Positions 2,746 to 16,714 of a DNA stretch of 18,502 nt are shown one piece after another. The notes under the pieces are model-generated. The model ran no database searches. It had not been told where the DNA came from and saw only the letters and a list, made by a program, of their open reading frames with translations. The DNA is from a bacterium. GTDB lineage: Bacteria > Bacillota > Clostridia > Christensenellales > Aristaeellaceae. The DNA is taken from contig CAVFPH010000042.1 of assembly GCA_963624325.1 (NCBI GenBank), positions 1 through 18,502 on the forward strand, read 5' to 3'. The number at the start of each line of letters is the position of its first letter. Within the stretch, counting starts at the first letter, position 1. The translations under genes were made by a program, and so were the position numbers.

Positions 2746-3647
2746 GCAAAAAATGCAGGCTCTTCCTTTCCCTGTACGTTCTGCTTCTGCTTTGTTATAC
2801 CGTGTTTGTCGTGCTGGATGCCTTTGTCATCCGCCGTGTAACAGCCACGGTCGATGCAGAGCAGGCCGCAGGCAATCTCGCGGAAGATGCGCAGGAAACT
2901 GCCGTTTCCGATCCCGTCATTACCGAAAACAGCTATCGGGATGAGCATATTTCCGTCACCATCACCACCAAGGAACTGGATGACACCACCGTCTATATTG
3001 CCGACATCACCCTTTCTTCCCCCGAATACCTGAAAACCGCTTTTGCGGATGATGCCTACGGCAAAAACGTAACCGAAAAGACATCTGCCATCGCTGCCCG
3101 AAAGAATGCCATTCTGGCCATTAACGGCGATTACTACGGCTCCCGTGAGCGCGGATACGTGCTGCGGGGCGGCACGCTGTACCGCAGCACGGCCGCTTCC
3201 GATCAGGAGGATCTGGTGATCGGTTCGGACGGCTCCTTTTCCATTATCGAGGAAAGCAAGGTAAGCGCAAACGCCCTGCTTTCACAGGGAGCGATGCAGG
3301 TTTTCTCCTTCGGTCCTGCGCTGGTAAAGGATGGGGAAATTGCCGTAACCACCCGCACAGAGGTCGGCAAGGCCATGGTCAGCAATCCGCGCACGGCCAT
3401 CGGCATCGTCGATTCGCTGCATTACCTGTTTGTCGTATCGGACGGACGCACACGTGAAAGTGCCGGGCTGTCCCTGTACGAGCTAGCGCAACTGATGCAG
3501 TCGCTGGGCGCACAGACGGCTTATAACCTGGACGGCGGCGGTTCCTCCACCCTGTACTTCAATGGCAGCGTCATCAATCATCCGACCACTACCGGCAGGA
3601 ACACGCAGGAAAGGAGCGTGAGCGACATTGTTTACATCGGTTACTGA
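2742..3647 (+). CDS. Membrane-anchored phosphodiester glycosidase family protein (NAGPA/DUF2233-like)
   Basis: ATGA start/stop overlap with the upstream gene. N-terminal TM LFLSLYVLLLLCYTVFVVLDAFVI. Family-typical motifs AINGDYYG and YNLDGGGSSTLYF. Confidence 0.8.
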   Translation: MSKKCRLFLSLYVLLLLCYTVFVVLDAFVIRRVTATVDAEQAAGNLAEDAQETAVSDPVITENSYRDEHISVTITTKELDDTTVYIADITLSSPEYLKTAFADDAYGKNVTEKTSAIAARKNAILAINGDYYGSRERGYVLRGGTLYRSTAASDQEDLVIGSDGSFSIIEESKVSANALLSQGAMQVFSFGPALVKDGEIAVTTRTEVGKAMVSNPRTAIGIVDSLHYLFVVSDGRTRESAGLSLYELAQLMQSLGAQTAYNLDGGGSSTLYFNGSVINHPTTTGRNTQERSVSDIVYIGY

Positions 3648-4026
3648 TCCGCAGCATCGCCAAATGAAAAAGCTCAGCAGACATTTTTTGCTGCTGAGCA
3701 TCGGATGTGCCGTTTTTTCCTTTGTGTATGAGTGCTTCAGCCATCACGTATACGCACTCAGCATGATTCTTGCCTTCCTGTATCCCCTGCTCGGCGGCGC
3801 ATTGGTCTGCCTCATTCTGTCACATCTTCGCCGTCTGCCGCCTTCCTGGGCGCTGGGGACATGGTGCGCAGGCATCATTACCGCCATGCTCGGCAGCCTG
3901 ATGCAGGGCGTGCTGGTCATCTTCGGTACAACCAACCGCTTGATGATCGTCTATCCCCTGCTGGCCGTCGGGCTGTGTCTGGCAGGCCTTTACGGATATC
4001 TGACCGGTTTCCTGCTTCATGACTAA
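3628..4026 (+). CDS. Small polytopic membrane protein (about 4 TM), unknown function
   Basis: Four hydrophobic segments. The start is ambiguous: either TTG at 3628, 11 nt after AAGGAG (3611..3616), or ATG at 3664 (MKKLSRHF...) with no clear RBS. Confidence 0.55.
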   Translation: MFTSVTDPQHRQMKKLSRHFLLLSIGCAVFSFVYECFSHHVYALSMILAFLYPLLGGALVCLILSHLRRLPPSWALGTWCAGIITAMLGSLMQGVLVIFGTTNRLMIVYPLLAVGLCLAGLYGYLTGFLLHD

Positions 4027-4064
4027 GCAGCATCATCGGCTGTCAAATTTCTTTGGCGGCCTTT

Positions 4065-4883
4065 TTATTCTTCCGCCTTCTGCAGATTGCCCTGATATAC
4101 ATAAGATCCGCTGGCGTTGAAGGCAATGTACAGGTCATCCCCCACATGGAATACATCTTCGATTTCCTGGAAGGAGTTTACCTTGACGGTGTTGATATAG
4201 TTGCCTTCCCAATCATAGACCACTATCTGGTTTACCGTGCAGTCCTTACTGTTCTGCGGGAAGTAAATATACTTGTCATCGCAGTCCACGCCCTGCTTTA
4301 CAAGGCCCGTATCAAGGCCAAAGTAGTATGCCACATCGTTGAATTCGCTGTCCAGCACGGCAAAATTAAAGGTGCCGCTGATGCCCACAACATACTGATC
4401 GCGGCTCTCGCAGTAAGCAATGGCATACATGTCATGGCTCAGCTGCTTGGTTTCGGCAATCTGCAGCGTGTCGGTGTCCACAAGGGTGAGCGTATCATAG
4501 CGGGGCTTGTTGTTGGCCACAACCAGCTGCTTGCGGGATGGGTTGTAGCACATGCAGTTGCCGTGGGACAGATCCAGCCCGTACATCGTATCCGCCACCG
4601 TCCAGTCCTGCATGTTTACCTTCCAAATTGAGCACAGGCTGTCCACCTGATTTTCCATAATCATATAGGCATATTCACCATCGGTGGCGGCACCCTGCTG
4701 AACATGATAGTTGTGGTATGCCCACTCGTTGGGGGGAGACAGACGGATTTTTCTGCTCAGCTTGATTACATAGCTGCCGTCCGCCGTGATATCGCGCATC
4801 GTCAACGCCGCTTCATCGGCCAGTGCCGCACAGGTCATGCCGAGCAGGAGGGCAGCCAGCAAAAATGCGATCATTTTTTTCAT
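4065..4883 (-). CDS. Secreted hypothetical protein, Tyr/Asp/Asn-rich and probably all-beta
   Basis: Start trimmed to the internal ATG at 4883, preceded by AAGGAAA. Signal peptide MKKMIAFLLAALLLGMTCAALA. The gene looks more AT-rich by eye than its neighbours. I recognise no family motif. Confidence 0.65.
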   Translation of the reverse strand: MKKMIAFLLAALLLGMTCAALADEAALTMRDITADGSYVIKLSRKIRLSPPNEWAYHNYHVQQGAATDGEYAYMIMENQVDSLCSIWKVNMQDWTVADTMYGLDLSHGNCMCYNPSRKQLVVANNKPRYDTLTLVDTDTLQIAETKQLSHDMYAIAYCESRDQYVVGISGTFNFAVLDSEFNDVAYYFGLDTGLVKQGVDCDDKYIYFPQNSKDCTVNQIVVYDWEGNYINTVKVNSFQEIEDVFHVGDDLYIAFNASGSYVYQGNLQKAEE

Positions 4884-4932
4884 CGTTTTTCTGTTTCCTT
4901 TCTTACGCGAAATTCCATTTCGCGGCAAAAAG

Positions 4933-4961
4933 ATTATAGCATGCCCTGTGTTTTCCCGCAA
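4933..4961 (-). promoter_or_regulatory. Sigma-A-type promoter for the 4883..4065 gene
   Basis: On the minus strand: TTGCGG, a 17-nt spacer, then TGcTATAAT (extended -10). Confidence 0.6.
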
Positions 4962-4975
4962 CCTTATTTGCTTTA

Positions 4976-5004
4976 TTGATCTTCTGTTTCCGCCGTGTTA
5001 TAAT
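4976..5004 (+). promoter_or_regulatory. Sigma-A-type promoter for the cupin gene
   Basis: TTGATC (4976..4981), a 17-nt spacer, then TGtTATAAT (TATAAT at 4999..5004). Confidence 0.65.
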
Positions 5005-5038
5005 GCAGCTGAAATTCATTCAAAGGAGATTGAAAGCA

Positions 5039-5371
5039 ATGAACGGACCGATGAAGAACATCGATAAAGCGCAGGTGCTGGTGCTGCGCGATCAGGTTGC
5101 CTATCAGGACGGGCAGATCGTCAGCAAAACCCTGGCGCAGAACAGCAGCGTAAGCATCACCCTGTTTTCCTTTGACAAAGGTGAAGAAATCAGCTCCCAC
5201 AAGGCCGGCGGCGATGCTTTTGTTACCTGCCTGGACGGCGAGGGCGAAATCACCATTGACGGGGAAAAATACATTCTGCACACCGGCGAATCCATCGTGA
5301 TGCCCAAGGATCACCCGCATGCGGTATTCGGCAAGGAAAAATTCAAGATGCTGCTGGTAGTCGTCTTCTGA
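5039..5371 (+). CDS. Cupin domain protein (Cupin_2-like)
   Basis: Start trimmed to ATG 5039, 10 nt after AAGGAG (5023..5028). Small single-domain protein with the cupin-like segments ISSHKAGGDAFVTCLDGEGEITIDGE and GESIVMPKDHPHAV. Confidence 0.8.
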   Translation: MNGPMKNIDKAQVLVLRDQVAYQDGQIVSKTLAQNSSVSITLFSFDKGEEISSHKAGGDAFVTCLDGEGEITIDGEKYILHTGESIVMPKDHPHAVFGKEKFKMLLVVVF

Positions 5372-5392
5372 TTCAGCAGCCAAAACAGTACC

Positions 5393-5426
5393 GGCGCTTT
5401 TCATTGCGAAAAGCGCCGTTTTTTTG
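5393..5426 (+). terminator. Rho-independent terminator of the cupin gene
   Basis: 10-bp stem GGCGCTTTTC / GAAAAGCGCC with loop attgc, followed by GTTTTTTT. Confidence 0.85.
5396..5418. repeat. Copy 1 of an identical 23-nt hairpin repeat (GCTTTTCATTGCGAAAAGCGCCG)
   Basis: Exact match to 8696..8718, same orientation, 3300 bp apart. This copy forms the core of the cupin terminator. Confidence 0.9.
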
Positions 5427-5436
5427 CGCGCCGATG

Positions 5437-5490
5437 CAGAAAAAGCAAATGCCTCTTTCGCAAGGCAGCGCCTTCGAAAGGGGCATTTGC
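5437..5490 (-). terminator. Rho-independent terminator of the flavin reductase gene
   Basis: On the minus strand: GCAAATGCCCCTTTCG ... CGAAAGAGGCATTTGC, a 16-bp stem with one G-U pair, followed by TTTTTCT. It begins 8 nt after the stop. Confidence 0.75.
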
Positions 5491-5497
5491 AGTTGTT

Positions 5498-7600
5498 TTA
5501 TTTATTCAGTGCGTTTGCAGCCTGTTCGCCGGCGATCTTGCCGCTTGTAGCGCCAAATGTCAACTGGGTACCGCTGAAATAGTACTGATTGTAATACACA
5601 CCATTGGTCATTGCACCGGTAGCATAAAGTCCTTCAATGATGCTTCCATCCTCACGCAGTACGTGCTGATTTGCATCCGTCACAACGCCGCCCAGCGTAT
5701 CACAGCAGCCGGGAAGAATGCGAACCAGATAATACGGACCCGCTTCGGAGATGGGAATGAGATATTCAGCTTTTTTGCCAAAGTCGATATCCTCGCCTGC
5801 CGCTACGATTTCCTTGTAGCGATTGACGGTTGCTTCAAAGGTATCGACATTCATGCCAGCCTTTTCGGCAACTTCGCGAATGCTGTCGCCCTTGATAACC
5901 TCTCCGCAGTCGATGCCCTGCTCCGCAATTTCGGCAGCCTTTTCAGACAAATCTGTATACAGGCACCAATACGGGGCGTTATTCAGCTTGAACATGGCCA
6001 TATCCTGGGAAGAATATGCCTGCGCTTCGTTCATGAAGCGGTTGCCGTCACTGTCAACAACAAGGCGGCGATAGGTTGTTTCGTCCAGACCTTCAATCGG
6101 GCTTGCATCCTGCATAAAGATGTCGCAATACATGCTCTGCGAATGCATCAGCGCGGAGCAACGCGGGCGGCCGTTGTGAATCCACTGATCCTCATACAAT
6201 GCCGCGCCGATTGCTTCGGCCATCAAAAGGCCATCGCCCGTATTGCCAACCGAGGCATAGGAGGAAACCTCGGGCAGTTCGGGGATCAAGCGGTTGAGCA
6301 GATCGGGATTTTCAGAGTAACCGCCGGTAGAAAGGATTACGCTGTCGGCATAAACGTCCAGCTCGCCTGTTTTCGTTTCAGCACGAACGCCAACCACTTT
6401 GCCATTTTCGACGATCAGTTCGGTCGCGCGCGTGTCGGTGTACAGTTCCATCCCCTGATCAATGCATTTATCTCTCAAAAGTGTCAGGAGCTTGCCTGCG
6501 CGGGTGCCTTCAGGAATGCTTTCCACATCGAGACGCACCATCGCCATTCCACGATCAGCGATTCCCTGGTAAGGGATAACGGTCGCGCCCTGTTCGACCA
6601 GCCAATTGATGGTAAACATACTCTGAACAAGCTGGAATTTCAGTCTGTCAATGTCGGGATAAATCGACTCACGGTAGCTGACACTCTGATATTCCATCCA
6701 ACGCGTGACAGCCGCATCGAGTGTATCTTCTTCTTCCGTCAGGTGATACCCTTCGTTTTCATCAACTTCGCAGATCATGAACGTGCCCAACGAATTCTTG
6801 GCACTTCCGCCGGTGATGGACAGCTTTTCCAGCATAATTACATTCGCACCCAGTTCAATGGCGCGCATGGCTGCAGTTGTACCAGATAGACCGGAGCCAA
6901 CGACAACAATGTCCGTATGCAGCACCTTGGGTTCAGCGTTCTTTTCATGAACCACCGGTGTGCTGAACTGCGCAGTCGTTGCGCCCGCCTGCGTCAGACA
7001 ATCGCGCACGGCGGATTTAATTGCATTCGTCGTCAGGCTCGCACCGGTTACTGTGTCCACACCAGTGCTCTGGTTTGCGATGATTTCCTCCGGCAATGTG
7101 TCAATTGCGATAGAGCCAATAGCGAATGTATCGAAGTTTTCGACTACTTCAATTCCGGTAATGGCGTTCTCAGATACAGTTACGGTAAGCGTAAGCAAGC
7201 CGCCGTAGCTGTTGGCCGTCGCAGTATAAGTTCCTGCAGTCATTGTTACATTGCTCTGCTGCACACCCATAATCTGGTTGTAAGCATTCTGCGCGGCGAG
7301 AAGAACCGCTTTCGAAGTAACAGTTGCACCTGTTACGCCGTCAACGTCAATGCTTCCTGTGGCCGACATGGCAGCAGACATTGTTTCAATGGCTTTTCCA
7401 CCTATTGTCGGCGTTTCATTTTCTCCGTTTATAACAACTTCCGTGATCGCGCCGTCCGTCACCGTCAGCTTTACGCTTACGACACCGCCGAAGCCCTGCG
7501 CTGCGCCTTCCGCCGTCAGGACGCCGGTTTCAGCGTTGGCGGCTGCACAGAAAGTGAAAAGCATGCAAACTACAAGAAGCCAGGACAAAAGATGCTTCAT
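5498..7600 (-). CDS. Exported FAD-dependent oxidoreductase with two N-terminal FMN_bind domains (fumarate/urocanate-reductase-like flavin reductase)
   Basis: Start trimmed to ATG 7600, preceded by GGGAGGAAAA. Signal peptide MKHLLSWLLVVCMLFTFCAAANA. Two FMN_bind-like modules carry flavinylation-type motifs DGVTGATVTS and DTVTGASLTT. The FAD dinucleotide fold reads DIVVVGSGLSGTTAAMRA...LEK, and the C-terminal motif is GLYATGAMTNG. Confidence 0.85.
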   Translation of the reverse strand: MKHLLSWLLVVCMLFTFCAAANAETGVLTAEGAAQGFGGVVSVKLTVTDGAITEVVINGENETPTIGGKAIETMSAAMSATGSIDVDGVTGATVTSKAVLLAAQNAYNQIMGVQQSNVTMTAGTYTATANSYGGLLTLTVTVSENAITGIEVVENFDTFAIGSIAIDTLPEEIIANQSTGVDTVTGASLTTNAIKSAVRDCLTQAGATTAQFSTPVVHEKNAEPKVLHTDIVVVGSGLSGTTAAMRAIELGANVIMLEKLSITGGSAKNSLGTFMICEVDENEGYHLTEEEDTLDAAVTRWMEYQSVSYRESIYPDIDRLKFQLVQSMFTINWLVEQGATVIPYQGIADRGMAMVRLDVESIPEGTRAGKLLTLLRDKCIDQGMELYTDTRATELIVENGKVVGVRAETKTGELDVYADSVILSTGGYSENPDLLNRLIPELPEVSSYASVGNTGDGLLMAEAIGAALYEDQWIHNGRPRCSALMHSQSMYCDIFMQDASPIEGLDETTYRRLVVDSDGNRFMNEAQAYSSQDMAMFKLNNAPYWCLYTDLSEKAAEIAEQGIDCGEVIKGDSIREVAEKAGMNVDTFEATVNRYKEIVAAGEDIDFGKKAEYLIPISEAGPYYLVRILPGCCDTLGGVVTDANQHVLREDGSIIEGLYATGAMTNGVYYNQYYFSGTQLTFGATSGKIAGEQAANALNK

Positions 7601-7652
7601 GGGTTTTCCTCCCTTGTTTTCAATAAACATCGACAAGCTGCTTGCGGGGCAC

Positions 7653-7690
7653 ATTATAGCACCGATGGGAAAGCAAGGGAAGTGAATTTT
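7653..7690 (-). promoter_or_regulatory. Candidate activator-dependent promoter of the reductase gene
   Basis: On the minus strand, TGcTATAAT (TATAAT = 7658..7653) is a perfect extended -10, but there is no good -35 hexamer 16 to 18 nt upstream. Confidence 0.45.
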
Positions 7691-7734
7691 TTGCAATGTG
7701 TCTTATGCTTAGCGTTGCAAAAAGCGCAACGATT

Positions 7735-8634
7735 TTACAATTCGCGGAAGACACGCACATAAGAATCCGCAGCATAAGAAATCAGCGGATTGTTATTGCG
7801 CTTTTTATAAAGCAAGCAAAAGCATGTGTCAACCGGCGGCATATCCAGGAACGGACGTGCAACCAAGGAATCCGGAAGATTGCGCAGCACACCGGCAGAA
7901 AAAATTGAAACACCCCGCCCGGAAAGTACGGGCCATAGAATATCGTCACGGCTATAGGGGCGCACAATTACGTTGGGCGCGTTTCCCTTCCATGTACACC
8001 CCTGAATAATCGCGTCATATAGTATGGGGCTTCGTTCTCTCTCCCACATGAAAAGCGGCTGCCCGGCCAGATCGGCCGCGGTGAGCCCCTGCTTTTCTGC
8101 AAGCGGAGAATTGGCAGAAACTGCAACCATAAACGGAACGTTTTTCAGCGGAACACAAACAAGCGTATCGTCCATCGTCTGCAAAGCCGCCCTGAATCCC
8201 AGCAGCAGATCCAGCTTATCCGTTTTCAAATCTTCGCAGGCAGAAGGACGGTATGATCGAGTCAAACTGATTTTAGCGTCGGGAAAGCGGCTGCACAGGT
8301 CGTGAAAAGTTTGCATGATAATGTCCGGAAAGCTCATGTTCAGCATGGCGATTCTTATTTCATTCGCCCCGTTTTCGACAGTCTGGTGCAGTGCCATCCG
8401 TGTTTCGTCATATGCGTCCATCATCTTTTGCGCATGTTCACGAAATACACTTCCGGCGTTGGTCAACGACATTACGCCTGCATGGCGTTCAAACAGCTTT
8501 ACCCCGAATTCTTCTTCCAGATGTGCAATCTGTCTGCTTGCAGTAGATGGGCTGATAAACATCCGGTTGGCAGCATCGGTGATGTTCAAGTGTTCCGCAA
8601 CCATAAGAAAGCAAGCCAGGCTTTCCATATTCAT
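7735..8634 (-). CDS. LysR-family transcriptional regulator
   Basis: N-terminal HTH LNITDAANRMFISPSTASRQIAHLEEEFGVKLFER, followed by a LysR-type substrate-binding domain of appropriate length. The start is probably ATG 8634 (MNMESL...), downstream of GAGGAAA. The tracked ORF begins at a GTG at 8652. Confidence 0.85.
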   Translation of the reverse strand: MNMESLACFLMVAEHLNITDAANRMFISPSTASRQIAHLEEEFGVKLFERHAGVMSLTNAGSVFREHAQKMMDAYDETRMALHQTVENGANEIRIAMLNMSFPDIIMQTFHDLCSRFPDAKISLTRSYRPSACEDLKTDKLDLLLGFRAALQTMDDTLVCVPLKNVPFMVAVSANSPLAEKQGLTAADLAGQPLFMWERERSPILYDAIIQGCTWKGNAPNVIVRPYSRDDILWPVLSGRGVSIFSAGVLRNLPDSLVARPFLDMPPVDTCFCLLYKKRNNNPLISYAADSYVRVFREL

Positions 8635-8695
8635 ATCGTATCGTTTCCTCACTTTAGATATGGGTTTATTGAAAGGCCCGAGCGGCCATCAGGCT

Positions 8696-8732: not shown

Positions 8733-9242
8733 TCAGTTGTATTTGGCCGTCACGCTCATCGGAATTCCCCAAATGTAATAGGTGATTTTGAAGCTGCGCG
8801 ATACCTGGTGTTCTTCCTGATTTTGTATGCTTGTAAGCACCACAATCCATGCATCGTTTTCGCTTCCCGCGGAAACAACCGTGTTGGCATTGGCCTGCGA
8901 AGCATCCGAGGTAGCATAGGCCAGCACATCGCCGTTGGCGGGAATGGGCTGTATCTCCACCATTTCGGCATCAATCAGGCCGCCGTTGCGCAGGCGGAAT
9001 GTATAGGTAAAAAAGCTATAGTCCGCCGCCGTTCCGGGAACGCTTTCGGCAAACGCCGTACCGCTGAGCGCCCCCCGGTCCACTGCCGTCTGCAGGGCGA
9101 TGAATTCGCTGGTATTGCTTCCGGCTGCCGTGGCCTTCAGTTCAATCGATACCACCTGCAGTTTTGCATTGGCATAGGTGTAGATGCCCAGCCCCGCGGC
9201 AATCACCACCAGGACAATCATAAAAATCGCGACATATTTCAT
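8733..9242 (-). CDS. Small N-terminally membrane-anchored protein, unknown family (third gene of the stator-like operon)
   Basis: The ATG lies 6 nt after the stop of the upstream gene, with GGAG 9 nt upstream. TM anchor VAIFMIVLVVIAAGLGIYTY, then about 140 aa with a beta-rich-looking composition. Confidence 0.6.
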   Translation of the reverse strand: MKYVAIFMIVLVVIAAGLGIYTYANAKLQVVSIELKATAAGSNTSEFIALQTAVDRGALSGTAFAESVPGTAADYSFFTYTFRLRNGGLIDAEMVEIQPIPANGDVLAYATSDASQANANTVVSAGSENDAWIVVLTSIQNQEEHQVSRSFKITYYIWGIPMSVTAKYN

Positions 9243-9248
9243 ACTTTT

Positions 9249-10247
9249 TTACTCCAATGAGGACAAAATGCTGTTCATCTGCTCAATCATTTCCGCATCC
9301 TTTAAGCGGAATTTGATCTCCACACGGCGGGAACGCTCCTGATCCTCCGCGCCGTTTTCATCGTAAATCGGATCCGAAAAGCTGCGTCCCTGCGCGGTAA
9401 TGATGGACTGCAGGCGTGTCTTCTGCGCTTCGGTCAGGGTGCTCATGTTCAGGCAGTATTTGGCCACATTCAGCGCACGGTTCTGCGACAGCTCCAGGTT
9501 ATGCTCATAGCTGCCGGTAGAGTCCGTATGCCCTTCGATGATGATCTCGGCCACATAATCCCGATACTCATCCTGCAAAAGCACGCTCAGGTAGACGGGA
9601 ATCAGGCGGTTGAGCTGGGATAGTCCTTCGGGCTTTAGCGTGCTGCTGCCTGTCTCAAACATCAGCGTGCTGTCCAGCACGATATCGCCGGTATTTTCAT
9701 CCACCGTTGCGGAAATCCGTGCGGCAGCCAGCTGTGTGCTCAGTTCCTCCACAATGCGCGTGCGGATGCCCAGTATGTTGCTGATCTGCATCTGGTAATT
9801 GCTCAGTTCCTGTTCCTGATTGGCCAGCACCAACTGCATGGCATCAATGCGGTTCTGCTGATCGGCCAGATCGGCTTCCTTGAGCACAATCTGCGCCAGC
9901 AGCTCTTCATTTTCAGCCTCGCGCTCACTCAGCTTCACTTGGGCGGCATTGAGATCCTGCTCCTTTGTATCCAGCTGAATCTGGATAGCGGACAGCTCTT
10001 CTTCCTTGCCCATCAGCTCCACCCGCGTTGTCTCCAGATCCTGTTCCTTTTGGCTTAGGGTAATCTGCGCGGCATCCAGCTGCGTCTGCTGCTCTCCCAC
10101 CTGATCCAGCAGCGTATAATAATGATAAATGCACAGGGTAATGGCCAGTATGAACATCAGCAGCAGCGAACACATCATATCCGAATAGGATATCCAGTGT
10201 GTACCGCCGTCGCCGCCCCGGCGCGCACGGCTCAAGTGTCTGCTCAT
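9249..10247 (-). CDS. MotB/ZorB-like protein: TM plug with conserved Asp, long coiled coil, C-terminal OmpA-like peptidoglycan-binding domain
   Basis: Start trimmed to ATG 10247, preceded by AAGGAGG and 2 nt after the upstream stop. MotB-type segment HWISYSDMMCSLLLMFILAI (Asp23). Heptad-like E/K/Q/L stretch of roughly 120 aa with repeated KEQDL. OmpA-like motifs IIIEGHTDSTGSYEHNLELSQNRALNVAKY and RSRRVEIKF. Confidence 0.85.
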   Translation of the reverse strand: MSRHLSRARRGGDGGTHWISYSDMMCSLLLMFILAITLCIYHYYTLLDQVGEQQTQLDAAQITLSQKEQDLETTRVELMGKEEELSAIQIQLDTKEQDLNAAQVKLSEREAENEELLAQIVLKEADLADQQNRIDAMQLVLANQEQELSNYQMQISNILGIRTRIVEELSTQLAAARISATVDENTGDIVLDSTLMFETGSSTLKPEGLSQLNRLIPVYLSVLLQDEYRDYVAEIIIEGHTDSTGSYEHNLELSQNRALNVAKYCLNMSTLTEAQKTRLQSIITAQGRSFSDPIYDENGAEDQERSRRVEIKFRLKDAEMIEQMNSILSSLE

Positions 10248-10249
10248 GC

Positions 10250-11851
10250 TCAGGCCTCCTTGCTTGCCTGCTGCGTCAACGCTTCTCCTGCCGTCTGCAT
10301 GCATGCCGACATATCGCCCAGCGCACGCTGTAATTTGGACAAAGCGGAAATAACCCCCTCGGTGCCTGCGTTCAGGCGCTCGGTTTTATCCGCATAGGCG
10401 CCCTGCGCTGCCTTGGCCGTTTTTTCGATGCTTTCCAGCTTGCCGTCCAGCAGGGACACCATTGCATGCATATTTTCTTCAAACAGCCCCATGGTGCGCG
10501 ACAGTCCGCCGCTGATGTTCTCCACAAAGGATGTATAGCTCTGGCTGAGCTCCCGGCTGCTGTCCCGCATGGCCGCGGAAATCTGCTTGCTGTCCGCCCC
10601 CGATGCATCGGCCTGCTGGTGCACAGCCTCCAGCACACGCCCGCTCCACTGGGCGTATTCCTGCATGCTGCTCTGCAGCTGTTCATGCCCCGAGCGCAAG
10701 GTCATCATATAATCGGTCTGCTCCTGCACAGCTGCGTGCATGGCGTTTAGCAGATCCTGCGTCTTTTGCGCAAAATCCCCCTGCTGGCCGCTGATGGACG
10801 CGGCATCCGCCTCGTATTCCGCCATGCGGTCGGCAATCTGATGCATCAGCGTGCCGACATCCTGCATGCTGTCCATGATGGCCGATGCCGCCTGCAGGGA
10901 AGTATTGAGCGTATCATAATCCATGCGCTGCGATTGATTGATGGCCGTCAGGGTTTGTCCAAGCTGGGTAAACTGCCCGCCCAGCGCCCCGTTCATGCGG
11001 CTGATAAACGCCCCGACCAGCTGATTCAGCCCGTCAATCTGCGTCTGTGTCTGCCCGGCGATGAAGTTATTCATGGATTGTGCCACAGGCACCAGGCTCT
11101 TTTCCACCGCGGTGGTCATGCTGCTGCTTACGCGGTCGCCGATTTCCGTTACCGCATGGCGCAGGAACGCCGCGCGGTCCTCCTGCTGACAGATTGCCTG
11201 CACATTGTCGCTGAGGGGCTGCTGCATCACAAACTCCGTAAAGGCCTCATAAAACTCATCCAGTGCCTTTTGCGCCGATCCGATTGCGGCATGGTTCAAA
11301 ATATTGAAGGCCAGGGAGCAGGAGCAGCCTGCAATGGATGTGCCGAATGCAAAGTTCATGCCGTTGATCATATCCGATATGCCCGCCATGGTGCTGGCGG
11401 CATCCGACAGATCCAGTGCTCCCAGACCGCGCACAAGTCCGACAAATGTGCCCAGAATGCCCAGCGATGTCAGAATGCCCGGTATCACCTCACCCAGCTG
11501 GGTATGGCAATGGGCATATATGACGGTGTCATCGTTAATATAATCTTCCACGTTGCAGTTCATGCCGCGGCTGTCCAATTGTTCCGCATTTACCAGAAAG
11601 CGCTTCCACGCCGTGTGCATGCGCTTGCCAAGGAACATCGGATCCTGCCACACCGGATGCCCGACATCCTTGATGGTCATCATTTCCAGCCGATGCACCG
11701 CGCGGCGCAGGGCACGTGCGCAGGATCGGCATACAAATGTGCACTTGAAAAAGCCCGTCAGGCACACAATCGCAATGGCGCCATATATCAATAAATCAAT
11801 CAGGCTTCCGGCAGAGAAAATCCCCGAAATTTTTTGCGCAAAATCCTGCAT
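10250..11851 (-). CDS. MotA/ExbB/TolQ-family channel protein with a long C-terminal helical tail (ZorA-like architecture)
   Basis: RBS GGGAGGAAGG. TM1 at residues 16..36, then a basic Cys-rich loop. TM2 carries the MotA/ExbB-type motif GILTSLGILGTFVGL. TM3 is FAFGTSIAGCSCSLAFNIL. About 340 aa of Q/S/A/M-rich, helix-looking sequence then runs to the C-terminus. Confidence 0.8.
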   Translation of the reverse strand: MQDFAQKISGIFSAGSLIDLLIYGAIAIVCLTGFFKCTFVCRSCARALRRAVHRLEMMTIKDVGHPVWQDPMFLGKRMHTAWKRFLVNAEQLDSRGMNCNVEDYINDDTVIYAHCHTQLGEVIPGILTSLGILGTFVGLVRGLGALDLSDAASTMAGISDMINGMNFAFGTSIAGCSCSLAFNILNHAAIGSAQKALDEFYEAFTEFVMQQPLSDNVQAICQQEDRAAFLRHAVTEIGDRVSSSMTTAVEKSLVPVAQSMNNFIAGQTQTQIDGLNQLVGAFISRMNGALGGQFTQLGQTLTAINQSQRMDYDTLNTSLQAASAIMDSMQDVGTLMHQIADRMAEYEADAASISGQQGDFAQKTQDLLNAMHAAVQEQTDYMMTLRSGHEQLQSSMQEYAQWSGRVLEAVHQQADASGADSKQISAAMRDSSRELSQSYTSFVENISGGLSRTMGLFEENMHAMVSLLDGKLESIEKTAKAAQGAYADKTERLNAGTEGVISALSKLQRALGDMSACMQTAGEALTQQASKEA

Positions 11852-11886
11852 GCGGCCTTCCTCCCTTAACGATGGATGCTGCTTCT

Positions 11887-11915
11887 ATTTTAACGGATAA
11901 AAGCACAAAATGCAA
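11887..11915 (-). promoter_or_regulatory. Sigma-A-type promoter of the stator-like operon
   Basis: On the minus strand: TTGCAT (11915..11910), a 17-nt spacer, then TAAAAT (11892..11887), about 35 nt upstream of the ATG. Confidence 0.6.
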
Positions 11916-11969: not shown

Positions 11970-12656
11970 TTATATATCGTATTTCAGGCAGATCCGCTCC
12001 AGCTTTTCACCGATCGGGCGGCTGAGCAGGGCAAGATACAGCACGTTGGCAACGATGTAGGATACTGTGTGCGGCAGGGCCGAAAGGAGTGCCGCTCCGT
12101 AAAGGCCCAGACTGAACGTGCCGTGATACCACAGTACCGTCCAGATATCCATGATAAAGGAATAGGCTGCCCCCGCAATCAGACCGCAAAACATCAGCAT
12201 TCCGCGGCTCTTTTTCAGCGTGCGGGACAGATAGCCTGCAATCAGCCCGATCATCCCCCATGCAAACATCTGGAAGGGGGTCCATGGCCCCTGCCCAAAA
12301 TAGAAATTGCTGATTGCCGCGCTGAGCGCGCCCACAAGAAAGCCCGATTCTCCGCCCAGGTACATGCCCGTCAGAATTGTCATGGCCGTCACGGGCTTCA
12401 GCAGCGGAATAAACCGCCCGGCTGCCGTCAGCGCCGTCAAAGCGGAAACCAGCACCAGCCGCCGATGTCCCGTGCGCCTGTGTTCAAAGCCTGCGGCAAA
12501 CAGCACCAGCGCGCACACGGCAATCAGCCAGGCAATCAGCGCGTAGTGCTTTTCCCGCAGCAGAAATACACCCGCCGCAACCAGGGCGGGAACAATCAGG
12601 AACGGAATCGCGCGGCGCAGAATACGGCGGGTGCGGGCATTTCGGATCACTATCAC
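11970..12656 (-). CDS. ECF transporter S (substrate-capture) component, candidate corrinoid-specific
   Basis: Polytopic hydrophobic protein, including FYFGQGPWTPFQMFAWGMIGLIAG. There is no in-frame ATG near the upstream stop. GTG 12656 overlaps the ATPase stop as GTGA, and a second GTG lies at 12650. It is the last gene of the riboswitch-controlled operon. Confidence 0.7.
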   Translation of the reverse strand: MIVIRNARTRRILRRAIPFLIVPALVAAGVFLLREKHYALIAWLIAVCALVLFAAGFEHRRTGHRRLVLVSALTALTAAGRFIPLLKPVTAMTILTGMYLGGESGFLVGALSAAISNFYFGQGPWTPFQMFAWGMIGLIAGYLSRTLKKSRGMLMFCGLIAGAAYSFIMDIWTVLWYHGTFSLGLYGAALLSALPHTVSYIVANVLYLALLSRPIGEKLERICLKYDI

Positions 12657-14281
12657 AGCTGTTTTTCTGCCTCCTTGATGCGAAGCGATGCAATCTCCTC
12701 TGCGCAGATTGCCGTATCGCAGATGCCGCGCGCCATCCTGTTGGCCGGGGTTGTGTAATAGTGATTTCCCGCAAAAAATGCATGCGGCTCGGCGCACGCA
12801 ACAATTTCTCCCCTGAAAAGCAGAGCGCAGCGGTCGGCACATGCCGCGGCAAAAGAAACATCATGTGTTACACACAGCACCGTCAACCCTTTGCTGCGAA
12901 GCGCCCGAAGCAGCTCCGTCATTTTTTCGCACGCAAAGGCATCCAGCCCCTTGGTGGGCTCATCCAGCAGCAAAAGTTTCGGGTGTGCCGCCAGTGCCCT
13001 GCACAAGGCCAGCGCCTGCTGCTCTCCGCCCGACAGATCATAAGGGTGCCGTTTCAGCAAAGGCGTAAAATCCATGGGAAAGTTTTCGGTATCGGCGTGT
13101 GATTTTTTCAGTTCCTCCTCCACCGTGCTGTGCATAAAAAGCGTCTGCACATCCTGCGGCAGCAGCGCAAGGCAGTCCCGGTAAAGCGTTTGTCCCGTAT
13201 AGGCCCGTTGTTTTTTCCCGAATATCATGATATTTCCCGCATACGGCCGCTGGAGCCGCGCCGCGCAGGCAAGCGCTGTGGATTTTCCGGAGCCGTTTCC
13301 GCCCAGCAGGCAGAAGATCTCCCCCGTATGAACTGTCAAATTCAGGCCGCGCAGTACATCGGGCACATTGCGCTCATAGCGGAAATAAACATCCTTCATT
13401 TCCAGAGCCGGCGGCGTATCGGCAGCAGCGCCTCCTCCAAAGGTCGGCCTATCGCCAATCAGCCTTTGGCTTTCCAGCATGCGCCTGCCCTCCCGCACGG
13501 TTAGCGGGCAATCGGCTGCATGCCACATTTCCGCCACGCGTGCGGCAGCCGGCATTGCTTTGGACAGCACGGGATGTCCGCGCAGCTCGGATACAACCTT
13601 TCGGGTTTCACCATCGGCAATCAGGCAGCCACCCTCCATGGCAAGCATTTTGCCCGACAGCGGAACGGCCTCCTCCAGCCGATGCTCAATCAGCAGGACC
13701 GTCAGGGACAATTCCCGGTTGAGCCGCTGCAAAGTAGATAAAAAGCTGCCCACCGCTATCGGATCCAGCTGCGCCGTCGGCTCATCCAGCAAAAGGATAT
13801 CAGGCTGCATCACCATCACGGCCGCCAGGCAGAGCAGCTGCTGCTGTCCGCCGGAAAGGGAAGCTGTATCCCGTCCAAACCAATCCTCAATGCCGAAATA
13901 GCAGGCTGTTTCGGCCACTCTTTGCCGAATCACCGTCTGCGCAAGTCCCATATTTTCAAGCCCGAAGGCCAGCTCGTGCCACACTTTGTCCGTCACAATC
14001 TGCTGCTGCGGATGCTGCGAAACAAAGCCGATGCGGCAGGCGCTCTCCCGCTCGGACATGTCACCAATCGGCTTTCCGTTATACAGAATCTCCCCCGTCA
14101 TCGTCCCTTTCGGGGCGATTTCCCGCTTCAGGCACCGCAGAAGGGTGGACTTTCCGCTGCCGGTTGCTCCGCACAGGATGCAAAAATCCCCCTTATCCAG
14201 TTTGAAGGAAACCTGCTTTACCGCCTGATTGCCGCATTGCGGATAGGAAAAGCTTAAATTTTTGACCTCAAGCAGTGCCAT
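12653..14281 (-). CDS. ECF transporter ATPase, fused duplicated nucleotide-binding domains (EcfA1A2-like)
   Basis: RBS GGAGGAG. Two Walker A motifs (GATGSGKST, GGNGSGKST), two ABC signatures (LSGGQQQ, LSGGEQQ) and two Walker B motifs (LLLDEPT twice). Confidence 0.9.
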   Translation of the reverse strand: MALLEVKNLSFSYPQCGNQAVKQVSFKLDKGDFCILCGATGSGKSTLLRCLKREIAPKGTMTGEILYNGKPIGDMSERESACRIGFVSQHPQQQIVTDKVWHELAFGLENMGLAQTVIRQRVAETACYFGIEDWFGRDTASLSGGQQQLLCLAAVMVMQPDILLLDEPTAQLDPIAVGSFLSTLQRLNRELSLTVLLIEHRLEEAVPLSGKMLAMEGGCLIADGETRKVVSELRGHPVLSKAMPAAARVAEMWHAADCPLTVREGRRMLESQRLIGDRPTFGGGAAADTPPALEMKDVYFRYERNVPDVLRGLNLTVHTGEIFCLLGGNGSGKSTALACAARLQRPYAGNIMIFGKKQRAYTGQTLYRDCLALLPQDVQTLFMHSTVEEELKKSHADTENFPMDFTPLLKRHPYDLSGGEQQALALCRALAAHPKLLLLDEPTKGLDAFACEKMTELLRALRSKGLTVLCVTHDVSFAAACADRCALLFRGEIVACAEPHAFFAGNHYYTTPANRMARGICDTAICAEEIASLRIKEAEKQL

Positions 14282-15129
14282 TGAATGCGTTCTCCTCCTT
14301 CCGCCAGGGCAGGCAGCAGGCAGAGCATGCCGTACGCGGCCATCACTGCCTGCGCGGGTAAAGAATGTTCGGATGCCGTGATCTCAGGATAATATTCAAA
14401 CCGCAGGCTGCCGCTGAAAATCCCCCACAGCGCCGCCGCCGTCAGAATCAGCGAAATGCTCAAAAAAGCCGCATCCGCCCGCGTGAACCGAAATATTGCA
14501 TACCGTGTTCTGCGGCCCGTGCCATAGCCACGCGCCGCCATGCTGTCCGCCGTAACAATCCCGTTTTCCAGTGCCCAGGTTGTCAGAATGGAAAATTCCC
14601 GTGCGCGCCCCGCTGCCGCGTCGGGCAGGTTTTCATCCCGATATAATCCCAGCCCAAGCTGCGCCCGATGAATGCGCTCTCCCTGCCGCGCAAAAAGCGG
14701 CACAAACCGCAGTGCCATGCTGACCGTCAAGGCAAAGGACGGGGATATCCCTCCCAGCAGATACAGCAGCTTATCGCTTGTCAGCGTGGCGCTCAGCAGC
14801 CGAAACCAGCCGATCATGCCCACAATCATGCCGGATGCCGCCATGCCGTATAAGAGCGCCTCCAGCGTGAAGGGCCGATCGTTGATGACAAACAGCACCG
14901 TTACGCCGTCATGATAAAAAAGCGGGTTCAGCAGTGACATCAGTAGAAAAATCATTATGCCCGCAGCCGCCATGCGCAGGCTCATCCTGCCATGAAGCAG
15001 CAAAAGCATCGTGCATCCGAGCAGCGACAGGACAATCAGCGCGGGATGCAGAGACAGCATGCCAATGCTCATGACGCCCGCAAAATAGCAAAGCTCGGTG
15101 ACGGGATGCAGTTTTTCCAGCCCTCTCAT
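14254..15129 (-). CDS. ECF transporter transmembrane T component (CbiQ/EcfT family)
   Basis: Start trimmed to ATG 15129, preceded by GGGAGGAA. Polytopic membrane protein in the position expected beside the ECF ATPase. It overlaps the ATPase start by 28 nt. Confidence 0.85.
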   Translation of the reverse strand: MRGLEKLHPVTELCYFAGVMSIGMLSLHPALIVLSLLGCTMLLLLHGRMSLRMAAAGIMIFLLMSLLNPLFYHDGVTVLFVINDRPFTLEALLYGMAASGMIVGMIGWFRLLSATLTSDKLLYLLGGISPSFALTVSMALRFVPLFARQGERIHRAQLGLGLYRDENLPDAAAGRAREFSILTTWALENGIVTADSMAARGYGTGRRTRYAIFRFTRADAAFLSISLILTAAALWGIFSGSLRFEYYPEITASEHSLPAQAVMAAYGMLCLLPALAEGGERIQWHCLRSKI

Positions 15130-15142
15130 TTTGTTCCTCCCG

Positions 15143-16714
15143 TCACGTAAAATCCCGCCCCATATCGCAGGTATACAGCCACTCGATCTTATCTCCGTCC
15201 GACAGCTGATATTCGCCGCAGCCGACATTCGGAATTTCGCCGTTTACGCGGTACATCCATCCGGACAGCTCACCAAAGTCAAACTCATAAAGGTGGCAGA
15301 TGCCCGCCACATAGGCAGATGTGCCGCTTCGGCTGTCCAATTGCAGCTTGTTTTCCCGAACGGCTCTTACCAAAACATCGTAAACCGTATCCCCCTGCGA
15401 AATTGCATAAGTTGTTTCCGCAAGGATGATGCCGTTCTCCGGGATATAGCGTGCATCGGTCTGCCCCTTCACGGTGTCGCAGCGGATGGTCAGCATCACA
15501 CTGTCGACGCTCTCTGATGTGTTTGCCGTCGCCGCTGCGTAGTAGTCCGATGCGCTTTCGATGCGCAGGGAGCACAGCACCGCCGCCAGCGCGATGCAGA
15601 TCACCCATACCGCAATATAATTTTTGACGTTCCGTTTTTTTGCAAGGAACAGCAGGAGGCCTGCAAGCAAACCGGCAGCGGCAATCGCAATCACCGCCCA
15701 GGCCTTCCAGCCCGGATGCACAGCAGAAGATGCTGTCTCTGTCGTTTGCGCATCCAGATGATAGAACGCGCCGCGTCCGCTTTGAAAGCGTTCCAGGGCA
15801 ATCAGGGCACTGAGTGCCTGCACGGTTGCTATGCTGCTCTTTTCGCCGTTTTCGGCATGGGAAAAACTGTTGTCCGCCAGCTGATAGCGAAGCATCGCAT
15901 CCGTCACCGTACAGCCGTTTTTGATAAACCTTTCGTCGCTTGCCGGGTCGATATTCAGGGCGCATAGGGCAATGATCACCTGTGCTGCACTTTCGCAGTT
16001 CGGCGTGCCCATGCTGCAGTAACCTCCGCTCTCGGTCTGGATTTTGCTGAGCAGCGCAAGGGCATTGTCAACGGCTGTCCGGACATCATCCGAATCGGAT
16101 GCATAAGGGGCAAGTGCCTGCAGTGCCATTGCCGTTACATCGGCATCCGCCTGTGCCCCCATCACTGCCCAGCCGCCGTCCGAAAGCTGCAGGCTCAGCA
16201 GTCCCGAGATGGCCTGCTCTATTTCTTCATCCGTACTTTCTGGCAGGTTGCTCAGCAGATGCAATCCGTAAATCCAGCTCATAACGCCCTGTCTGCCGAT
16301 ATCCTCGTTTCGTGCGCAGGATACAAAGGGATGATCCGCACGGCCGCAGGCCGCAAGCACCAGGGCCAGTTTCAGCCTTGTCGCCGCGCCTGCAGGCGGC
16401 GATGTTTCCACAAATTGCTGCAGTGCATCGGCATAGGCAGAATAGTCCGGGCCCGATATATACTGATGCAGCGCCAGCACGTACCACTCGGCATTTCCGC
16501 CGATATCCTCACACAAAGCACCATTCAGCCATGCCTGCACACTGTCTGCTCCGTCGGCAGCTTGCTCGGATGCCAGGATTTCGTCAATCCGCTGTGCCTC
16601 CGACGGCGCTGCCGCCTGTCCGCATCCGGCACAAACAAGCAAAAACAGCCCCAGCAAAAGGGCAGCCATGCACCTTTTGCCAAGGCTGAAACGTATTGTT
16701 TGAGCAGTCATCAT
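15143..16714 (-). CDS. Lipoprotein-like surface protein: prenyltransferase/terpene-cyclase-like alpha/alpha-toroid, TM hairpin, C-terminal DUF4430 (transcobalamin-like beta domain)
   Basis: ATGA overlap with the upstream gene. Signal peptide with Cys (LFLLVCAGCGQ). Toroid-repeat motifs LQLSDGGWA and IQTESGGYC. Two TM helices at residues about 336..383, flanking KKRNVKN. The C-terminus carries DUF4430-like LSGWMYRVNGE...LSDGDKIEWLY. Confidence 0.8.
   Translation of the reverse strand: MMTAQTIRFSLGKRCMAALLLGLFLLVCAGCGQAAAPSEAQRIDEILASEQAADGADSVQAWLNGALCEDIGGNAEWYVLALHQYISGPDYSAYADALQQFVETSPPAGAATRLKLALVLAACGRADHPFVSCARNEDIGRQGVMSWIYGLHLLSNLPESTDEEIEQAISGLLSLQLSDGGWAVMGAQADADVTAMALQALAPYASDSDDVRTAVDNALALLSKIQTESGGYCSMGTPNCESAAQVIIALCALNIDPASDERFIKNGCTVTDAMLRYQLADNSFSHAENGEKSSIATVQALSALIALERFQSGRGAFYHLDAQTTETASSAVHPGWKAWAVIAIAAAGLLAGLLLFLAKKRNVKNYIAVWVICIALAAVLCSLRIESASDYYAAATANTSESVDSVMLTIRCDTVKGQTDARYIPENGIILAETTYAISQGDTVYDVLVRAVRENKLQLDSRSGTSAYVAGICHLYEFDFGELSGWMYRVNGEIPNVGCGEYQLSDGDKIEWLYTCDMGRDFT

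Follow-up and report, generated by a model that had tools for sequence, protein, structure and literature searches.

What is the role of a motor operon that has neither flagellar genes nor TonB or TolA genes nor Zorya effectors beside it? We address this question for a three-gene operon at positions 8733-11915 of an 18,502-nucleotide (nt) stretch of contig CAVFPH010000042.1 (GCA_963624325.1), which comes from a bacterium of the Aristaeellaceae, a family of Eubacteriales; the whole stretch is called the window below. The three genes lie on the minus strand and encode a ZorA-like channel or rotor subunit (gene 1, 10250-11851, 533 amino acids (aa)), a ZorB-like stator subunit (gene 2, 9249-10247, 332 aa from its MSRHL start) and a third subunit (gene 3, 8733-9242, 169 aa), and we refer to them as the triad. 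ZorAB is the newest member of the class of 5:2 ion-driven motors, and Zorya is among the most widespread antiphage systems. Our analysis makes it highly likely that the pair encoded by genes 1 and 2 is structurally of the ZorAB type.

The three-gene operon is real and well conserved. Genome, metagenome and viral collections supplied 114 loci, gathered by the presence of the triad; we counted those with at least 520 bp beyond gene 2 and grouped them into lineages at 85% gene 1 identity. Gene 3 follows gene 2 in 86 of these 86 loci, covering 54 lineages and gene 1 identities down to 37%. Since the same three genes stand in the same order in every related locus that reaches far enough, they are not chance open reading frames (ORFs), and the triad that an earlier sequence-only reading had singled out in this window is kept intact among its relatives. 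Conservation falls from gene 2 over gene 1 to gene 3, with mean pairwise identities of 61%, 56% and 43%, respectively. The homologues of gene 1 number more than 1000, and those of gene 3 found by a word search all come from uncultured Clostridia. The relatives are labelled as Clostridia or Clostridiales metagenome-assembled genomes (MAGs), twice as Oscillospiraceae and once as Aristaeellaceae, and were sampled from human gut, rumen, bioreactor and fermentation metagenomes. This agrees with the host having looked like a monoderm Firmicute from the letters alone, its monoderm envelope being read here from the taxonomy labels.

The ZorA-like and ZorB-like subunits

Gene 1 is matched by 19 ZorA models of PADLOC, and ZorA1 (PDLC00601) aligns with it over residues 25-530, tail included, at E 5.1e-25. 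The nearest solved sequences are the ZorA chains 8vvn_C (E 2.6e-12) and 8qyk_A (E 3.4e-10), which in our PDB sequence search have the motif PGILTxxGIxGTF of the second transmembrane (TM) helix in common with gene 1. The scores stay under the curated cut-offs of all NCBIfam ZorA models (76.8 vs 100 bits for the best one), and by its sequence gene 1 is a ZorA relative outside the curated NCBIfam subfamilies. The Pfam family PF28082 ('ZorA-like_t1') is the precomputed label of every listed close and distant homologue, and gene 1 almost certainly belongs to it. This label names a sequence family and is silent on gene 2, gene 3 and the operon; we found no paper or functional description for PF28082, nor any description of the present family in the literature on ZorA-like or Zorya-like families, Gram-positives and Firmicutes included. 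The gene 1 family is thus already catalogued; for the triad, the stalk of gene 2 and gene 3, too, our literature searches gave no description.

The motor domain of gene 1 (aa 1-194, 11270-11851) consists of TM1 (~17-40), a basic cytoplasmic loop, TM2 (~120-145) and TM3 (~165-190). No other part of the protein is as conserved: TM2, given by PGILTSLGILGTFVGL, carries LGILGTFVGL, and L127-F136 are invariant in 17 sequences and, with the exception of L130, in 27. We built an AlphaFold2 (AF2) model from 27 homologues, in which residues 14-210 have a predicted local distance difference test score (pLDDT) of 80-93. The six best Foldseek matches of this model in PDB are all ZorA chains, with E from 4.5e-7 to 6e-5 and target-normalised TM-scores of 0.53-0.64, whereas TolQ, ExbB, MotA and PomA match only at E > 0.04. 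The motifs, the model and the ZorA matches agree with the three-TM ExbB/ZorA topology and long tail that had been proposed before. The MotA_ExbB model (PF01618), which had been suggested as a check, gives 15.4 bits where 22.9 are required, so that gene 1 falls below the broad family but clearly matches ZorA models and structures; some of its homologues carry a precomputed PF01618 match.

The rest of gene 1 (aa ~195-533, 10253-11269) is a cytoplasmic tail of ~340 aa predicted to be all alpha-helical, with helices at residues 215-306, 312-354, 360-414 and 420-532 in the AF2 model at low pLDDT, as expected of a monomer model. Conserved patches lie near residues 200-305, and the distal end is variable. 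The tail has no match above cut-off to a characterised domain. Apolipoprotein, BAR, Sec10_N and similar domains were considered and dropped, their Pfam matches being far below the cut-offs and reflecting helical composition.

Gene 2 matches the PADLOC model ZorB1 (PDLC00609) from end to end (E 7.6e-71, 236 bits), with ~100 residues inserted, and its PDB sequence matches are the ZorB chains 8vvn_B (E 6.9e-13) and 8qyd_F (E 3.9e-11). As with gene 1 and ZorA, its scores stay under the curated ZorB cut-offs of NCBI. The N-terminal TM helix (10119-10202) has the sequence SYSDMMCSLLLMF and carries Asp23 (codon 10179-10181). In the alignment its motif WISYSDMM falls on WISYADLM in E. coli ZorB and on WMSFSDLM in the Shewanella protein, which makes Asp23 the counterpart of the ion-coupling Asp of ZorB. 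All of 21 lineages share W18, S22 and D23. The C-terminal part (aa ~165-315, 9303-9755) is an OmpA-like peptidoglycan-binding domain, scoring 62.3 bits against the Pfam cut-off of 27.2. It contains GHTDSTGS and NLELSQNRALNV, and none of the same 21 lineages departs from the peptidoglycan-binding motifs GHTDxxG and NxxLSxxRA (G239, T241, D242, N250, L251, L253, S254, R257 and A258). Both the Asp-bearing helix and the OmpA-type domain had been recognised correctly from the sequence. Of the two models suggested for gene 2, OmpA is thus above its cut-off and MotB_plug (16.1 vs 24 bits) below it; the ExbD model also stays below its cut-off (16.2 vs 25.4 bits).

We compared the pair with the solved ZorA5B2 complexes (PMC11946911, PMC11890865), using E. 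coli type I (8QYD), Shewanella type I (8VVN) and Sulfuricurvum type II (8VVI) as references. The likeness covers a three-TM channel with PGxLTxxGIxGTF and a long helical cytoplasmic tail, a partner that has W-I-S-Y-x-D-hydrophobic in its TM helix and an OmpA-type peptidoglycan-binding domain at its C-terminus, and the best sequence, profile and structure matches of both genes. Judged by these matches, genes 1 and 2 are homologous to ZorAB and belong specifically to the ZorA/ZorB branch.

The stalk of gene 2 and the third subunit

The ~100 residues that gene 2 has in excess of the ZorB1 profile and of E. coli ZorB (8qyd_F) form a heptad-repeat stalk (aa ~43-160, 9768-10121) without counterpart in canonical ZorB. 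We describe it from its sequence periodicity. Between positions 43 and 155 nearly every seventh residue is hydrophobic, usually Leu, with N113 as the one exception in the window protein, and L64, L71, L92, L99, L106 and L127 are invariant. In 37 of 40 lineages the Asp and the GHTD motif are 208, 215, 222 or 236 aa apart, so that the spacing changes in steps of 7. A pattern of this kind is characteristic of an unbroken coiled coil in which the angular register would matter. The stalk would comprise ~16-18 heptads and measure ~17-19 nm if fully helical, at ~0.15 nm per residue. Its heptad-quantised length is a clear and directly testable structural prediction.

Gene 3 has no match in Pfam, NCBIfam or PADLOC. 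Its AF2 model (pLDDT 82) shows an N-terminal helix, directly followed by an immunoglobulin-like (Ig-like) beta-sandwich with one inserted helix. The helix is a hydrophobic stretch of 22 residues (aa 3-24, 9171-9236), and the ectodomain covers aa 28-169 within 8733-9242; the two features bear out the earlier view of an N-terminally anchored extracytoplasmic protein. The Foldseek matches in PDB are generic Ig-like folds, adaptin-ear or GAE domains and a FixG-related protein, with TM-scores of ~0.4-0.5. In the lineages compared, 1-3 basic residues at the N-terminus precede a hydrophobic run of nearly always 21-24 residues (range 18-27), and no AxA site is conserved, which indicates an uncleaved signal anchor. 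A cleavable signal peptide was considered for the ANA-K of the window protein and rejected, since the AxA site is unconserved and the hydrophobic run long. As the Ig-like domain starts right after the TM helix, it would have to sit on the outer membrane face beside the motor. We also examined a possible conserved face of the TM helix (A5, V12 and G19 in close relatives). In an alignment of 47 lineages only A5 stays above 95%, and the stripe was therefore dropped as evidence of a TonB-like TM contact.

A profile search of 1.84 billion representatives gave 233 cluster representatives of gene 3, and nearly all full-length relatives among the 150 listed are ~155-175 aa long. The core of the profile also matches 26 and 16 stretches in two giant proteins (P0175 and P0203, 4372 and 4048 aa), which Pfam assigns to DUF11 with 30 and 25 detected repeats. 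This indicates that gene 3 and DUF11 may be distantly related; gene 3 itself has no Pfam DUF11 match, and the tie runs through the profile repeats in the two giant proteins. One of these giant proteins ends in a CHU_C sorting domain of the type IX secretion system (T9SS).

In 14 lineages, all from clades more distant from the window, gene 3 is directly followed by a gene for an exported Peptidase_M15 (PF01427), a VanX-type D-Ala-D-Ala peptidase. Examples are found in L008 (13035-13742) and in L024, L026-L028, L041, L042, L049, L052, L053 and L087. The peptidase starts within ~20 nt of the gene 3 stop in most of these lineages, usually with an overlap of 16 nt, and nearly all copies have AxA-type signal peptides. 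By this arrangement gene 3 and the peptidase are predicted to be translationally coupled in one large clade. In L091 (10608-11780) the two form a single ORF of 390 aa with a remnant signal-peptide-like segment between them, which could be a true fusion or an assembly indel, as only a single contig represents it.

Inheritance and possible function of the motor

The commonest neighbours of the triad among the 54 lineages are hprK (16), a ROK kinase gene (15) and asnS (12), which sit upstream of the triad and are divergently transcribed. The linkage persists down to 43-46% gene 1 identity. We calculated Spearman correlations between the pairwise identities of the triad and those of the adjacent hprK, and obtained 0.82, 0.79 and 0.86 for genes 1, 2 and 3, respectively (105 non-independent pairs from 15 lineages), which is what vertical co-inheritance predicts. 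The triad looks vertically inherited and chromosomal, diverging in step with hprK. It had been described as lying outside any known context, and this is true of the window; the relatives, however, have the recurrent hprK-ROK-asnS neighbourhood. A mobile-element origin was considered and rejected: viral contigs gave only distant relatives, plasmids gave only proteobacterial zorA at ~20% identity, and no close relative of the triad was found in the phage or plasmid collections.

We surveyed the two nearest ORFs on each side of the triad in 53 lineages, 157 ORFs altogether. No ZorC/D/E/F/G-type effector was found by PADLOC in these flanking ORFs or in the 10 other proteins of the window, nor were TonB or TolA genes found in either set. 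No flagellar or chemotaxis family was found in the flanks whose Pfam families were seen, where sporulation genes were not screened by name, and no Zorya genes were seen in the flanks examined. The absence of flagellar, TonB/TolA and ZorC-G-type genes that had been noted for the window thus extends to the flanks of its relatives. The triad is not a member of Zorya types I-III, since their defining effectors were looked for and not found. The 157 ORFs contain no recurrent PADLOC family beyond ABC-ATPase look-alikes, with single isolated matches to mad2, Cas3, CARF and Csa3, and no defence island was found around the triad in the loci examined. The commonest Pfam families, assigned to 78 of the 157 ORFs, are housekeeping or metabolic, among them hydrogenase, HprK, Sua5, binding proteins, SH3 proteins and MarR. 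One lineage (L001, L002 and L014) encodes a 969-aa protein with TIR and tetratricopeptide repeat (TPR) domains ~2 kb downstream of the triad (~12762-15671); the small protein encoded after it has a faint Lar_restr_allev match. Apart from the TIR-TPR protein, we saw no defence-like neighbour.

If the complex is built like its solved ZorAB homologues, a ring of five gene 1 copies would surround two copies of gene 2. As ions pass Asp23 and the OmpA-type dimer is held on the peptidoglycan, the gene 1 pentamer would rotate around the gene 2 dimer, and the cytoplasmic helical tail of ~340 residues would turn with the ring. The rigid, phase-locked stalk would keep the peptidoglycan-binding dimer ~17-19 nm off the membrane, possibly because the motor is adapted to a single-membrane cell and has to reach its wall. 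Gene 3 may regulate the motor or sense for it, and so control when the stator engages or conducts; this is more likely than an effector role, since no other partner is invariant and gene 3 is located outside the cytoplasm. The motor may report or act on the status of the peptidoglycan or envelope through its rotating tail, with a cytoplasmic partner encoded elsewhere. We give a probability of roughly 0.5 to this statement as a whole, i.e. that the triad is a wall-state-coupled transducer of the ZorAB type with its cytoplasmic partner elsewhere, based on the lack of a cytoplasmic effector in cis, the core-like inheritance and the recurrent peptidase, which trims stem peptides. An envelope function is more likely than a classic mobile antiphage system. 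We further speculate, more tentatively, that the three-subunit ZorAB motor, set apart by its rigid heptad-phased stalk and its Ig-like membrane subunit, is a core, vertically inherited envelope machine in a large clade of gut and rumen Clostridia. It would couple proton flow to wall sensing or remodelling and signal inward through the rotating tail, which would be a previously unrecognised housekeeping, possibly ancestral, use of the Zorya motor.

Several points weigh against the triad being a wall-state transducer. To our knowledge, antiphage defence is the function of every ZorAB complex characterised by experiment, and genes 1 and 2 have their best hidden Markov model matches among defence models. 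Vertical inheritance and housekeeping neighbours could be compatible with defence as well, the gene of an effector could lie elsewhere in the genome, and the TIR-TPR protein lies near the triad in one lineage. The peptidase link occurs in only about a quarter of the lineages and not in this window. The loci were gathered by the presence of the triad, so that the counts are silent on its universality within the host clade, and the pairs behind the hprK correlation are non-independent. We infer the geometry of the stalk, the stoichiometry and the contact between gene 3 and the motor; the model of the gene 1 tail has low confidence, and the monoderm envelope of the host is taken from taxonomy labels only.

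The points from defence lead to the main alternative hypothesis, in which the triad is a minimal or new type of Zorya for monoderms: ZorAB would sense damage of the wall by a phage, and either the tail would recruit a distant effector or the motor and gene 3 would block infection at the envelope. Besides the defence models among the family matches and the TIR-TPR gene, this hypothesis can draw on the Zorya complexes being the nearest solved structures and on the subtypes of Zorya being modular in their partners. The long ZorA tail is moreover the signalling element of Zorya, whereas Zorya is reported to be under-represented in single-membrane bacteria, for a reason left open (PMC11946911). The triad differs from Zorya in many respects: ZorC/ZorD, ZorE and ZorF/G/H or any other PADLOC effector are missing in the window and the flanks examined, its sole conserved partner is an obligate third subunit that is Ig-like, extracytoplasmic and non-enzymatic, and the tail has ~340 aa versus ~500 in E. 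coli ZorA. The peptidoglycan-binding domain of canonical ZorB lies close to the TM helix, while gene 2 has the extra heptad-phased stalk of ~100 aa between them. The host belongs to the class Clostridia and is presumably monoderm by its taxonomy labels, the scores are below the NCBI curated ZorA/ZorB cut-offs, and plasmid and phage collections hold only distant relatives. The triad is chromosomal, and its vertical inheritance beside housekeeping genes, co-diverging with hprK, weakens the defence option. We therefore consider a Zorya of this kind rather unlikely, and the earlier hedged proposal of an envelope-sensing or energy-transducing motor, possibly for defence or envelope stress, holds with its refinement to ZorAB and with defence losing ground.

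The formal layout of the operon, i.e. channel, Asp-bearing TM protein and single-pass N-anchored protein around a 5:2-type motor, is also that of ExbB-ExbD-TonB and TolQ-TolR-TolA, as the sequence-only reading had pointed out. The motor could accordingly pull gene 3 as an analogue of TonB or TolA and energise a process at the wall or surface. TonB and TolA bind to the outside of the ExbB and TolQ pentamers, and gene 3 is strictly co-inherited with its motor. The analogy does not extend beyond the layout, however. Gene 3 has no TonB_C or TolA C-terminal domain and no proline-rich or otherwise extended linker, with its Ig-like domain placed straight after a TM helix that is not specially conserved across the wider family. 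Gene 2 falls below the ExbD cut-off and carries an OmpA domain in place of the ExbD/TolR fold, the fold of gene 1 is far closer to ZorA than to TolQ or ExbB, and a host that is monoderm by its taxonomy would offer no outer membrane to energise. Such a force transducer is improbable in our view. Even less credit is due to a flagellar or gliding stator, for which the Asp-bearing TM helix, the OmpA-like peptidoglycan anchor, the occurrence in monoderm Firmicutes, as for the flagellar stators (MotAB, MotPS and PomAB), and weak matches to MotA, MotB and MotS could be cited. Gene 1 reaches 12.1 bits against the 340 bits of the flagellar stator MotA model of NCBIfam (NF005997), and gene 2 reaches 29-38 bits against cut-offs of 264-312 for MotB/MotS. 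MotA has four TM helices and a FliG-binding loop, but gene 1 has three and a helical tail after TM3, and in gene 2 a long phased coiled coil takes the place of a plug and flexible linker. Flagellar genes are not seen nearby, and cultured species of Aristaeellaceae are reported to be non-motile (PMC12694931), which makes a motility role very improbable.

A ZorAB-type motor is thus common in one large group of uncultured Clostridia from gut, rumen and bioreactors. Its package lacks an effector, always includes a third subunit, reaches to the wall by a ruler-like stalk and is apparently inherited with the core genome. It would be a new Zorya type for monoderms with an effector logic of its own if it is a defence system. 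If it is not, it would extend the motor class to a housekeeping role and help to explain how 5:2 motors acquire new purposes. The Aristaeellaceae include cultured species, so experiments may be possible if isolates carry the operon.

Other features of the window and related loci

The gaps between the genes are 2 nt (TGA-gc-ATG, gene 1/gene 2) and 6 nt (TAA-aaaagt-ATG, gene 2/gene 3), exactly as first reported, when both junctions are read from the letters. AAGGAGG, embedded in the end of gene 1, is a strong ribosome-binding site for gene 2, for which a longer in-frame ORF extends to 10304, and GGGAGG (~11861-11866, minus strand) precedes the ATG of gene 1. The operon had been said to have its own promoter. 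A candidate sigma-70-type promoter TTGCAT-17-TAAAAT (11887-11915, minus strand) is present in the sequence with an 8/12 match to the consensus, and its hexamers and 17-nt spacing are unchanged in two ~94%-identical relatives, in which four spacer bases differ. Our consensus promoter scan, however, did not report this site, and it found 2 promoter-like sites in the region versus 3.6 expected in shuffled sequence, i.e. no excess; terminator-like sites were in no excess in the same scan either. A promoter of its own is plausible for the operon. The G+C content shows no break across it.

The operon lies between a cluster for an energy-coupling factor (ECF) type transporter upstream and a regulator-flavoprotein pair downstream, all on the minus strand. 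The ECF-type cluster (11970-16714) encodes a riboflavin-type S component, a double ABC ATPase, a CbiQ-like T component and a DUF4430/prenyltransferase-like lipoprotein. The longest ORF of the S component overlaps the ATPase gene by ~190 nt, and its true start is probably further downstream. The PADLOC matches mad3, mad8 and AriA on the ATPase were discarded as generic matches to ABC domains. The pair downstream consists of a LysR regulator (7735-8652) and an FMN_bind/FAD flavoprotein (5498-7696). The closest relative, L113 with 98% gene 1 identity, has the same upstream ECF genes without this pair, and its gene 3 is directly followed by a cupin gene and a gene for a secreted protein of 271 aa. 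The pair (5498-8652) is either a strain-specific insertion downstream of an intact triad or a deletion in L113. Exact-sequence look-ups of two neighbour proteins of the window, made for their presence or absence at the strain level, gave no matches.

In the phage collection we found two partial matches to gene 1 with ~33% identity, covering a segment of the motor (residues ~100-215). They lie on unannotated 'Bacteriophage sp.' contigs from human faeces (MT835828.1, 1452-1790, and MT839011.1, 3283-3546). A 'viral' contig of IMG/VR, L109, encodes a distant ZorA-like protein (545 aa) and a ZorB-like protein (332 aa) at 3204-5848 with no third gene, located between pheT plus a histidine phosphatase gene and rplS-lepB-ylqF-rnhB. 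In this stretch the contig is housekeeping DNA of a chromosome, and the pair is a second core-genome variant of the ZorAB-like kind. In another case (L007 and L023, one MAG, 4046-5017) the ZorB-like gene is split into ORFs of 73 and 202 aa, possibly a pseudogene or a sequencing frameshift.

A secreted protein of ~270-300 aa, encoded at 4065-4961 on the minus strand of the window, has a faint beta-propeller-like Pfam match. In 11 loci it is found again no more than a few kb downstream of the triad, which may reflect plain synteny or a functional neighbour, and it is tandemly duplicated in L001 (10545-12459) and L014.

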